A DNA stretch of 26,689 nucleotides from Gammaproteobacteria bacterium (GCA_050298595.1 JBNKUM010000053.1:1-26689), one strand, 5' to 3'. Shown: positions 1,039 through 2,755, counted from the first letter of the stretch. Made by a program: numbers and translations. Notes: generated by a model not told the origin, from the sequence alone.

Positions 1039-1120
1039 ACGCTTTGTGTAACCGGCTGCCAAATGCTGCATAGCGAAGCGGCACAGCGTTTGGTAGTCCG
1101 AGTTTACACGATCGTTATGC
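1039..1120 (-). other. Integron attC site of cassette 2, R' core split by the intron
   Basis: Minus strand: R'' GCATAAC overlaps the arsM stop. Arms TGTAAACTCGGACTACCAAACGC and GCATTTGGCAGCCGGTTACA pair with extra bases on the left arm. The site ends GCGT| where GCGTTRRRY is expected. Confidence 0.88.
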
Positions 1121-2020
1121 CATGGGTTTAGTTGCCTCGATTGTAGCTGATACAACATACTCCGTTATTTTGCTGCCAGGAACCCATTCGCGTATGAACT
1201 CGCGGCTTTCATCCTTGGGTGAAATACGGATAACACCAAACCCCGCATCGGTCAGATAGGCTTTAATGTCTGCAAGCGAACTGGCCCCTGCCATACAACC
1301 GGTGTAGAGGAATAGATCACTTTGCAGATCTTCCGGTAACGCCGCTGTTAGAACGATATCGGAAACGGCGATACGACCGCCTGGTTTCAATACACGAAAT
1401 GCCTCCGAATAAACCTTCCACTTCTCCGGGGACAGGTTAATCACACAGTTCGAAATAATGACATCTACGCTGTTGTCTGCTGCGGGAAGATTTTCGATTT
1501 CACCAAGTCGAAAGTCCACATTTTGCACACCGGTCTTTACGGCATTTAATTTGGCTTTTGAGATCATTTCTGGCGTCATGTCGACCCCGATCACAAAGCC
1601 CTTATCGCCAGTGGCCTTTGCCGCCAAAAAACAATCAATTCCGGCACCACTTCCCAAATCGAGAACGGTTTCTCCCTGTTGAATTGAGGCAATGGCTTGA
1701 GGATTGCCGCAACCAAGGCCGAGATTCGCTCCTTCTGGCAAGGAGGCCAACTCGTCTGACGAGTAGCCAAGTGCTTTTGAGGTTTCATCCGGCGATAGCG
1801 CCGGGCCACTGCAACAGGTTCCTTGTTCGCTGTTGCTATCACTTGATGGTGTTGTGTCGTCGCAACCGCAACCGTCTTCACCTGCTGCTTTTGCCTCGAC
1901 ATCTGCCACGCAGCAGGCATCGGCTTCTTTCGGGGCAGGCCCACCGCAGCAGCCTTCCGCTGTCTTGCCATAGTGGCTACGTACTGTTTCGCGGACTTCG
2001 TCTTTGTTGAGTTGTTTCAT
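1115..2020 (-). CDS. arsM: Arsenite S-adenosylmethionine methyltransferase with Cys-rich N-terminal extension
   Basis: ArsM motifs GANLGLGCGNP, VLDLGSGAGID (SAM motif I), GVDMTPEM, ISNCVINLSP and YTGCMAGA. RBS GAAAGGAG is upstream. Confidence 0.92.
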   Translation of the reverse strand: MKQLNKDEVRETVRSHYGKTAEGCCGGPAPKEADACCVADVEAKAAGEDGCGCDDTTPSSDSNSEQGTCCSGPALSPDETSKALGYSSDELASLPEGANLGLGCGNPQAIASIQQGETVLDLGSGAGIDCFLAAKATGDKGFVIGVDMTPEMISKAKLNAVKTGVQNVDFRLGEIENLPAADNSVDVIISNCVINLSPEKWKVYSEAFRVLKPGGRIAVSDIVLTAALPEDLQSDLFLYTGCMAGASSLADIKAYLTDAGFGVIRISPKDESREFIREWVPGSKITEYVVSATIEATKPMA

Positions 2021-2075
2021 GTTTGTCTCCTTTCATGATTAAATCGAAACAGAACGATTTCTGCTTCTACATAGA

Positions 2076-2103
2076 TAGACGGAGACATTACGAAAAGGAC
2101 GCA
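2076..2103 (-). promoter_or_regulatory. Putative ECF-sigma (SigZ-type) promoter for arsM
   Basis: Minus strand TGCGTCC-N15-CGTCTA between the sigma gene and arsM. CGTC is a typical ECF -10 core. Confidence 0.5.
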
Positions 2104-2119
2104 AAAGCGGCAAATAATC

Positions 2120-2668
2120 TTAGCAGAGCTTACAATCGTCATCTCTTTTGTCGTATTCAACTATTTGATTCATTGCGTTAATTTCTATTTTGCAACAGTC
2201 GTGAAGCATGGTTTTCAACAGTGCTCTTCCCCGTTGTACTCGCGACTTCGCCCCAGAGAGTGAAATGTTTTCTTTTTCCGCTATCTCACTTTGGGTGTTC
2301 CCTTCAATCTCGGAGAGCTGAATCGCATGGCGGTATTTTTCCGGTAATTGCTGAATCATCAGGGCAAGACACGACGATAACTCCCGCCTGTTAATTTCCT
2401 CCCTGCTGGCTTGCTGTTGTCCAAGCCATTCCGGTAATTCTTCCAGTACCTTATGGGAACGATAATAATCAATAAGAGAATTTCTTGTTATTTGATAGAG
2501 CCAGCTTTCAAGCTTTTTCCTGCTTTTAAGGGTACCAATCCGAGAATGAACCCGAACAAAGATGTCCTGAAGAATATCTTCAGCCGCATTATTATTGTTG
2601 ACCCGTTTTCGTATGAAAGCGCGGAGATTGGAGTGATACTTATTCCATATTTCGTCAGTCGTATTCAT
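2120..2668 (-). CDS. sigZ: ECF RNA polymerase sigma factor, SigZ-like
   Basis: Region 2 (AEDILQDIF..SWLYQITRNSLIDYYR), region 4 (LPEKYRHAI..ISLSGAKSRVQRGR) and a C-terminal DCC...CKLC tail. Confidence 0.85.
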   Translation of the reverse strand: MNTTDEIWNKYHSNLRAFIRKRVNNNNAAEDILQDIFVRVHSRIGTLKSRKKLESWLYQITRNSLIDYYRSHKVLEELPEWLGQQQASREEINRRELSSCLALMIQQLPEKYRHAIQLSEIEGNTQSEIAEKENISLSGAKSRVQRGRALLKTMLHDCCKIEINAMNQIVEYDKRDDDCKLC

Positions 2669-2684
2669 TCTGTTTCTACCAATG

Positions 2685-2755
2685 GCATAACGCCATGCTC
2701 TGTGGGAATTTGAGAGCGACAGCGAACAAATGTTCCATAGGGCGTGTTGTTAGGC
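2685..2755 (-). other. Integron attC site of cassette 1 (71 bp)
   Basis: Minus strand GCCTAAC-AACAC-GCCCTATGGAACATTTG...CAAATTCCCACAGAGC-ATGGC-GTTATGC: RYYYAAC/GTTRRRY cores with an imperfect internal palindrome. Confidence 0.88.

Follow-up and report, generated by a model that had tools for sequence, protein, structure and literature searches.

Control of arsenic genes is generally taught as repression by ArsR, and toxin-antitoxin and cmlA-type cassettes are examples of integron cassettes with two genes or with a promoter of their own. Here we describe, in a 26,689-nucleotide stretch of a gammaproteobacterial genome (GCA_050298595.1, JBNKUM010000053.1:1-26689; hereafter the window), an integron cassette in which sigZ, a gene for an extracytoplasmic function (ECF) sigma factor, stands ahead of arsM, a gene for an As(III) S-adenosylmethionine (SAM) methyltransferase. 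The closest described regulators are CorE and CorE2 of Myxococcus xanthus (formerly placed in ECF44, now in ECF238). As set out in two accounts (PMC7826278; PMC8999054), these ECF sigma factors resemble the SigZ of the window in having no anti-sigma partner, in combining a linker cysteine with a short Cys-rich C-terminal extension and, if SigZ acts as proposed here, in controlling metal detoxification genes without autoregulation in most loci. CorE2 is activated by metal through its Cys-rich end (PMC7826278; PMC8999054), CorE and CorE2 both need a linker CxC motif in addition to that end (PMC8999054), and the characterised ECF238 relatives respond to Cu or Cd/Zn (PMC7826278; PMC8999054). Bacillus subtilis SigZ has been assigned to ECF238 (as ECF238s9) together with CorE2, the members of this group having a Cys-rich C-terminal extension and no anti-sigma factors (PMC7826278). 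Its signal and regulon are there called unknown, the activation signal being a 'long-standing enigma', and the same source has no conserved gene context or promoter motif on record for the group (PMC7826278 Supplementary Text S2).

Compared with CorE and CorE2, the SigZ of the window has a single linker cysteine (SSCL) in place of CxC, its candidate target is arsM, and the two genes form a mobile pair in an integron cassette. Since it has one linker cysteine and lacks the CxC motif of CorE-like sigma factors, we keep the protein apart from the CorE-like group, even though its mode of action may be similar. It is like B. subtilis SigZ in matching the SigZ equivalog models, in size and in having no anti-sigma partner; its membership of ECF238 was taken from the published equation of SigZ with ECF238s9. 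With ArsR-repressed ars operons that include arsM, the locus shares the ArsM family and a presumably inducible arsenic detoxification, but it differs from them in the proposed positive control by a dedicated sigma factor and promoter, and in having no ArsR-type gene in the cassette. As with the toxin-antitoxin and cmlA-type cassettes, a single attC-bounded unit with internal expression signals moves more than one gene together; unlike in those cassettes, the internal promoter is proposed to be served by a sigma factor from the same cassette and not to be a plain sigma-70 promoter. The components (integron cassette, ECF238 sigma factor, ArsM and a group IIC-attC intron) are each known in kind. 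Their combination, and a SigZ-arsM regulon with its own promoter, appear undescribed: in the open full-text literature we found no paper in which arsM is tied to SigZ or to another ECF sigma factor, and no description of an arsM integron cassette.

The stretch at 2690-1039 (minus strand) is a two-gene integron cassette, the second member of a short array that lies downstream of a truncated integron integrase gene (intI) and the attI region. It carries sigZ (2120-2668, minus strand, 182 aa), arsM (1115-2020, minus strand, 301 aa) and, between them, the bipartite motif TGCGTCC-N15-CGTCTA, here called the SigZ box. Its status as a cassette follows from its complementary ends, the hairpin-forming attC sites, the intI fragment, an intron specific for attC sites, and the occurrence of the same unit in three other loci (L012, L013 and L040).

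The product of sigZ exceeds the cut-offs of both SigZ equivalog models (NF007215, 220.4 bits against 212; TIGR02959, 204.2 bits against 168.65), and its Pfam content is Sigma70_r2 and r4_2 only. Its cysteines lie at C100 in the linker that joins sigma-2 to sigma-4, at a CC pair (C158-C159), and at a C-terminal CxxC (C179-C182) within a short, Cys-rich tail that follows sigma-4. The linker reads ELSSCL with its single cysteine, and the same pattern was seen in a 20-sequence alignment. In a 77-row alignment of SigZ proteins, which includes three mis-called open reading frames (ORFs), cysteine is found at the position of C158 in 75 rows, C159 in 73, C100 in 62, C179 in 66 and C182 in 60. An AlphaFold2 model of the protein (predicted local distance difference test score 84.4) shows a beta-hairpin after sigma-4 that starts at the CC pair; in a fold search, the structural neighbours of SigZ were generic ECF sigma factors. 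As an initial annotation of the window had noted, no arsR or anti-sigma gene accompanies the pair: neither an ArsR-type nor an anti-sigma domain was found in the scanned cassette ORFs, and no anti-sigma domain among the flanking proteins. Upstream of sigZ, the window has neither a SigZ box nor a sigma-70 promoter that scores above chance, and sigZ would be transcribed from farther upstream; its anatomy thus fits the dependence on upstream transcription that had been suggested for it.

ArsM, too, exceeds the cut-off of its family model (NF008823, 342.5 bits against a cut-off of 263; Pfam Methyltransf_31, E 3e-38), so that both parts of the earlier description of the cassette as one with an ECF sigma factor and arsM pass family cut-offs. 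The best solved relatives of the protein are arsenite methyltransferases (5evj, E 9e-33), with which the cysteines of its GCGNP, SNCVINLSP and GC.AGA motifs align; these we take to be the As(III)-binding residues. The N-terminal region is Cys-rich, with additional CC pairs. From its sequence, we infer that ArsM methylates As(III). In a tree of 49 ArsM rows, from which three rows of 230 aa or less were left out, phyla are intermixed within tight clades. The window groups with a locus from Ignavibacteriota (L003; support 100/100), while L012, L013 and L040 fall in another clade (96/97); the very long branches of L049, L059, L067 and L073 reflect crude ORF calling and are meaningless. At L003, the locus closest to the window by arsM, a rifampin ADP-ribosyltransferase (Arr-ms) gene (2537-2989) ends 12 nt before sigZ.

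The synteny of sigZ and arsM, which the initial annotation had proposed to look for in other genomes, recurs widely. A search for SigZ relatives gave 4445 matches among 4475 candidates, with ~60-80% identity across distant phyla, and 80 sigZ loci were sampled for gene context, one per species, as the best-scoring of at least 590 confirmed. With a threshold of at least 150 bits against the ArsM of the window, an ArsM homolog is present in 51 of the 80 loci. In 48 of these it is on the same strand as sigZ, lying downstream within 400 nt in 37, farther downstream in 3 and upstream in 8; in 3 loci it is on the opposite strand. Across the 51 ArsM loci, the 98 flanking proteins are for the most part unrelated between loci; since its neighbours change in this way, the pair travels as a unit. 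Among the flanking proteins with a link to arsenic are an ArsC-type LMWPc (4 loci), ArsP_1 (2 loci), an Acr3-type transporter and a single ArsR-type protein (HTH_5, 1 of the 98); other metal- or arsenic-linked flanks are DUF2703, phytochelatin synthase and glutathione S-transferase (GST). The phytochelatin synthase gene follows an arsM-sigZ pair in a locus from Lentisphaerae (L010, 3970-4701).

The SigZ box, a candidate SigZ-dependent promoter, is located at 2076-2103 (minus strand), 55 nt upstream of the arsM ATG. It consists of a -35 element TGCGTCC (2103-2097), followed by TTTT, and a -10 element CGTCTA (2081-2076), and it is the sole match to TGCGTCC-N15-CGTCTA in the window even when one mismatch is allowed (0.02 expected). 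The motif that the initial annotation read as an internal ECF-like promoter is thus there and unique. In the sigZ-arsM spacers of other loci, the box is found nearly unchanged. A strict pattern gave 85 matches in 72 of the 80 loci, of which 83 have exactly N15 and 81 are on the sigZ strand; by comparison, first-order Markov simulations gave a mean of 2.66 matches and a maximum of 7. Counted from aligned ArsM starts, 47 of the 51 ArsM-bearing loci have the box no more than 450 nt upstream of ArsM. The four without a strict match are L026, which has a one-mismatch variant, L032, where the contig ends, L055 and L065. Moreover, the box tracks its target: where arsM comes before sigZ, the box stands upstream of arsM, and where the target is divergent, it is found on the other strand. 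A logo built from 84 sites shows T in 82, 84, 77 and 71 of them at the four positions after the -35 element, which the search pattern left unconstrained; also favoured are TT ahead of the -35 element and A-T-A behind CGTCT, and the 11-nt gap is unconserved. Two conserved blocks at a fixed, unconserved spacing are what a bipartite promoter looks like, and the CGTC -10 element is of a kind typical for ECF promoters. The spacing ahead of the -10 element being invariant and the box preceding ArsM in so many loci, comparative genomics bears out the earlier suggestion of sigma-driven arsM, and we consider it highly probable that SigZ transcribes arsM from this box.

In comparative terms, sigZ-box-arsM is a widely conserved module that spans more than ten phyla, one that is old, widespread and captured by an integron. 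Neither the pairing nor the box is peculiar to the cassette that the initial annotation described, as they extend over the 51 and 72 loci, respectively.

Families were also assigned to 21 ORFs other than ArsM and SigZ that follow a box. Nine are DUF2703 proteins (one of them fused to an Rdx domain), two are ArsP-type permeases, two are LysE transporters, and one each is a DUF6428 protein, a GST, a molybdopterin oxidoreductase and a flavoprotein; the other four are small Cys-rich peptides without a family. DUF2703 is the second commonest gene behind the box (L021, L025, L037, L045, L046, L052, L070, L071 and L075), and a DUF2703 gene also follows arsM in L028 (4455-5018), which suggests that DUF2703 is tied to arsenic or thiol chemistry. 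The small Cys-rich ORFs (58-81 aa, no Pfam match) are found at L002 3612-3857, L065 3628-3804, L072 3863-3681 and L077 3645-3851. Those of L002, L065 and L077 resemble residues ~1-70 of the window ArsM in tblastn, and the ORF of L002 (Nitrincola) looks like a truncated arsM. In the Bacillales-type loci of the sample (L053, L065, L072 and L077), which are of interest for comparison with B. subtilis SigZ, the box stands ahead of such peptides or of arsM. The -10 element and the ribosome-binding site of arsM are separated by a short palindrome, which in the window reads CAGAA-N4-TTCTG (2063-2050, minus strand) and which is common to the three closest loci, namely the window, L002 (~3608-3621) and the intergenic region of L003; a hairpin in the leader or another operator are possible roles for it.

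The ends of the cassette were examined as follows. It starts with the R' box GTTATGC (2691-2685), with the start point between G2691 and T2690, and the ATG of sigZ is 23 nt past the G of R', close to the ~20 bp first given. Its first bases, GTTATGCCAT (2691-2682), complement its own R'' end, ATGGCATAAC (1123-1114), over the 10 bp that had been reported. The 10-mer ATGGCATAAC has exactly two copies in the window, at 1114-1123 (minus strand) and 2682-2691 (plus strand), where ~0.10 matches are expected by chance and two or more copies were seen in 2 of 100 shuffles. A repeat search lengthens this inverted pair to 15 nt at 93% complementarity. Upstream of sigZ, an attC-type hairpin (2685-2755, minus strand) runs from R'' GCCTAAC (2755-2749) to R' GTTATGC (2691-2685) and folds, its R boxes pairing, at -12.5 kcal/mol (z -2.3). 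The whole 147-nt gap between the ORF of the first cassette and this point (2837-2691) folds no better than its shuffles (z 0.21), whereas the inner 71-nt hairpin does; the gap may be a single long attC, or else an attC together with a remnant.

At the other end, the cassette's own attC (1039-1120, minus strand) begins with R'' GCATAAC (1120-1114), in which the arsM stop codon sits, and continues through a long imperfect hairpin to GT (1040-1039), the first two bases of R'; the remainder of R' has been cut off by a group II intron. The site folds at -20.7 kcal/mol (z -2.5). Over 70 nt it is 88.6% identical to the attC, there intact, that follows arsM in L013, a Sedimenticola metagenome-assembled genome (MAG), and over 52 nt it is 86.5% identical to its intact counterpart in L012, a Thiotrichaceae MAG. 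The alignment with L013 holds through ...GCGT and then splits into the intron in the window and TGATG... in L013, and this divergence fixes the insertion point of the intron. A consensus structure for the three sites has 27 shared pairs, among them one compensatory pair, with bulges on the R'' arm only. The claim of a single 1.65-kb cassette is thus upheld by its ends, its attC hairpins and the neighbouring intI fragment; an intact attC does not close it at 1040.

The search for flanking attC sites that had been recommended was also productive elsewhere. In L012, L013 and L040, GTTATGC lies 22-23 nt ahead of sigZ and the pair has cassette-type ends, which in L040 complement each other over 10 nt. 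Overall, 7 of the 80 loci have GTTATGC at a distance of 20-23 nt ahead of the sigZ start, against ~0.3 expected by hand arithmetic (~54 positions x 4^-7 x 80 loci). Between L013 (1632-1718) or L012 (3573-3661) and the window, the attC sites are 86-89% identical in nucleotides, while SigZ is 54-59% and ArsM ~55% identical in amino acids, which suggests that the genes have been exchanged while the frame of the cassette was conserved, or that the attC is under selection. Cassette-like ends were also seen in L004, L005, L006, L011, L008 and L024, several of them outside recognisable arrays; these retain either GTTATGC(C), 22 nt ahead of sigZ, or, at the arsM stop codon, an end resembling R'' (GCATAAC or the degenerate GCATAAA), and look like remnants of a cassette origin. 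Inspection by eye found no cassette ends in the closest relatives, L002 and L003. A hidden attC between sigZ and arsM was sought and rejected: the 99-nt spacer, in which the box lies, has homologous counterparts in non-integron loci, and the strict scan for attC sites is empty there.

The idea that the window holds no intI was set aside when a scan of small plus-strand ORFs turned up an integrase fragment at 3534-3782 (plus strand). It comprises the N-terminal 82 codons, with the truncation of the integrase placed after about 75 codons, and lacks the catalytic domain. The fragment matches Pfam Phage_int_SAM_4 (E 8.8e-19), and its best NCBIfam model is the integron integrase TIGR02249 (profile positions 1-66 of 315, E 2.9e-15). 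Its longer relatives, at identities of up to 66%, measure 300-360 aa, and 18 of the 23 that have a source name are named integron integrase. It is in the expected upstream and divergent position, 269 nt from the first cassette junction (box 3265-3259), and the region between intI and the first cassette (3259-3533, minus strand), which ends in that GTTATGC, is presumed to be attI. As intI is truncated, the integron platform is defective.

The intron in the attC is a fragment, the 5' part of an attC-inserting group II intron (718-1038, minus strand; assigned by similarity to the intron in the aadA1 attC, and with an approximate lower boundary). It opens with GTGTG at 1038, matching the GUGYG 5' end, and at 1044-786 the window shares 82-86% identity with the 5' end of the intron that interrupts the aadA1 attC in class 1 integrons of IncC plasmids (L001). 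The two are alike in this 5' end, in orientation relative to the cassettes and in the insertion point, GT|T of R'. They differ in that the copy in the window is recognisable over its first ~250-320 nt, is without a reverse-transcriptase gene and has an IS110 gene next to it. The Rfam model group-II-D1D4-3 matches weakly at 951-718 (E 0.017, below the gathering score). No Rfam match above gathering score and no further intron match was found in window positions 1-9000, no reverse-transcriptase domain in the ORFs of 1-1158, and no domain V/VI in the window. The IS110-family transposase gene (1-462, plus strand) runs off the window and is represented by its C-terminal part (Pfam Transposase_20; NF033542 at 153.6 bits, above the cut-off of 140, and covering profile positions 193-342 of 343); presumably, the IS110 element interrupts or replaces the rest of the intron. 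With intI truncated and the attC split, this copy of the cassette is probably fixed in place.

These data suggest the following sequence of events. First, sigZ would be transcribed from upstream, by the integron cassette promoter or by read-through. Second, SigZ, as a member of ECF238 with no anti-sigma partner, would steer RNA polymerase to TGCGTCC-TTTT-N11-CGTCTA ahead of arsM. Third, ArsM would methylate As(III) with SAM, which would lead to detoxification. Taken together with the anatomy of the cassette, these three steps are in our judgement probable. In a fourth step, As(III) or another thiol-seeking metal(loid) may bind the cysteine cluster of SigZ and so switch the sigma factor. This is the least certain step: the ligand would bind the linker cysteine, the CC pair and the C-terminal Cys cluster and turn the sigma factor on. 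The proposal draws on the switching of CorE by Cu and of CorE2 by Cd/Zn, and by this analogy a direct switch of SigZ by As(III) through its cysteines is conceivable, though we advance it with reserve. Because it brings along its own sigma factor and promoter, the module could work in unrelated hosts, and such host independence fits its spread across more than ten phyla. More broadly, and as a tentative proposal, SigZ-type ECF sigma factors may be one-component sensors of arsenite or related metalloids that form a host-independent, self-priming circuit, spread by integrons and other routes.

If this is true, the orphan SigZ gains a signal and a regulon, and a sigma-based control of arsenic genes is placed beside ArsR; a dedicated ECF sigma factor with a conserved arsM promoter across many phyla would be a second control logic, and a positive one. 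The link between sigZ and arsM suggests a function for a poorly understood sigma factor, with a ligand, a promoter and a regulon that are testable. For integron biology, it would mean that a whole circuit of regulator, promoter and effector can travel as one cassette, and its function would therefore depend less on array position and on promoter recognition by the host. Since arsenic methylation alters the mobility and toxicity of arsenic in soils and sediments, a mobile and self-regulated arsM module would also be of practical relevance.

Several points weigh against this interpretation. The case for a promoter used by SigZ, an active ArsM, a response to arsenite and a mobile cassette is in every part built on sequence. 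'Portable' fits the history of the cassette and not this copy, with its truncated intI and split 3' attC. The expression of sigZ lacks an explanation in the form of an above-chance sigma-70-type promoter upstream of the gene. The 80 loci, as the best-scoring of a larger set, are biased toward relatives of the window SigZ, and for 29 of them the flanks retrieved, which in some cases are short, contain no ArsM. The box also precedes LysE transporters, a molybdopterin oxidoreductase and a GST, genes without a known link to arsenic, for which reason the signal may be broader than arsenic. Finally, the attC heuristic, which combines the R-box consensus, hairpin energy and end pairing, is unspecific and lends weak support at most: in its strict form it gave 2 sites in the whole window, with the hairpin at 2755-2685 among them, but also 100 sites in 476 kb of loci, and in its loose form 74 sites in the window.

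The main alternatives to arsenite sensing by SigZ are a constitutively active, portable sigma factor and a different thiophilic or redox signal. Were SigZ constitutively active and no sensor, arsM output would follow the transcription of sigZ from outside ('bring-your-own-sigma'). This explanation, which we regard as doubtful, gains from the fact that the window sigZ has no box or promoter of its own, in common with most loci (a box is found upstream of sigZ as well in only 13 of the 80, the window not being one of them), and a host-independent pair of sigma factor and promoter would account for the cross-phylum spread equally well. Nor is an anti-sigma partner known for the group (PMC7826278 Supplementary Text S2). 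It sits poorly, however, with the strong conservation of the linker and tail cysteines. In addition, 12 rows of the SigZ alignment, mostly from Chloroflexota, have no linker cysteine, and these have 3-5 cysteines in the tail where the others mostly have 2. The rows are mutually related and the pattern is no more than suggestive; still, unless SigZ binds a ligand or takes part in redox chemistry, it is not easily accounted for. In CorE and CorE2, which are relatives, such cysteines act as the switch (PMC7826278; PMC8999054).

A sensor role for SigZ being granted, the signal might be something other than arsenic, such as Cd/Zn/Cu, antimony or thiol/disulfide stress, with arsM as one of several targets in thiol chemistry. 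We think this unlikely. The responses of the characterised ECF238 relatives to Cu or Cd/Zn speak for it (PMC7826278; PMC8999054), and so do some of the box-driven genes, those for DUF2703 (including the Rdx fusion), GST, the flavoprotein, the LysE transporters and the molybdoenzyme, and the phytochelatin synthase, OsmC and DsbD-type proteins that flank some pairs. By contrast, ArsM is by far the commonest partner of sigZ (51 of 80 loci), and the other neighbours or targets include ArsP_1, an Acr3-type transporter, ArsC-type LMWPc and ArsR.

The box itself might be the operator of an unlinked regulator, or a terminator or other 3' element of sigZ, with the adjacency of sigZ and arsM a matter of coincidental hitch-hiking. 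In three Bacillota loci (L049, L063 and L079) its -35 half does overlap an inverted repeat just after sigZ, and the tie between SigZ and the box rests on conservation. Such a role is nevertheless very improbable, for the box follows the target gene through changes of order and strand, has two blocks around a fixed and unconserved 11-nt gap with an ECF-type CGTC -10 element, and co-occurs with sigZ in 72 of the 80 loci. That the inverted repeats are chance or generic palindromes in an ordinary chromosomal islet is scarcely credible, for although the window has no intact intI, 79 inverted pairs in 7.3 kb and one intact attC-like site found by a heuristic with many false positives elsewhere, it also has an integron-integrase fragment in the right place, an attC-specific intron inserted at the canonical point, homologues of its attC that are intact behind the same genes in L012 and L013, and a 10-mer match exactly at both boundaries.

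Returning to the array in which the sigZ-arsM cassette is second, the first cassette carries a 136-aa ORF (2838-3248, minus strand; from the ORF list) that has no Pfam or NCBIfam match. Its first nine bases, GTTATGCAT (3265-3257), complement ATGCATAAC (2837-2829) behind the ORF. On the far side, an HD-domain gene (4392-3814, minus strand) abuts the break in intI. The plus-strand ORFs after the intI fragment belong to no family (3764-4063 in Pfam and NCBIfam; 3888-4103 in NCBIfam), and an antisense 88-aa ORF over the fragment (3764-3498) is probably spurious. An attC-like hairpin at 7163-7260 (minus strand; ACATAAC...GTTGATA, -17 kcal/mol) lies behind a 105-aa ORF (7572-7255); its place beyond the intI fragment is at odds with a simple array. 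The start of this hairpin resembles the R'' region after the first cassette, the repeat at 2812-2843 and 7237-7268 being 72% identical over 32 nt. The G+C content of the region forms a mosaic, with 36-37% in the first cassette, ~50% in the sigZ-arsM cassette and ~45% in the host genes.

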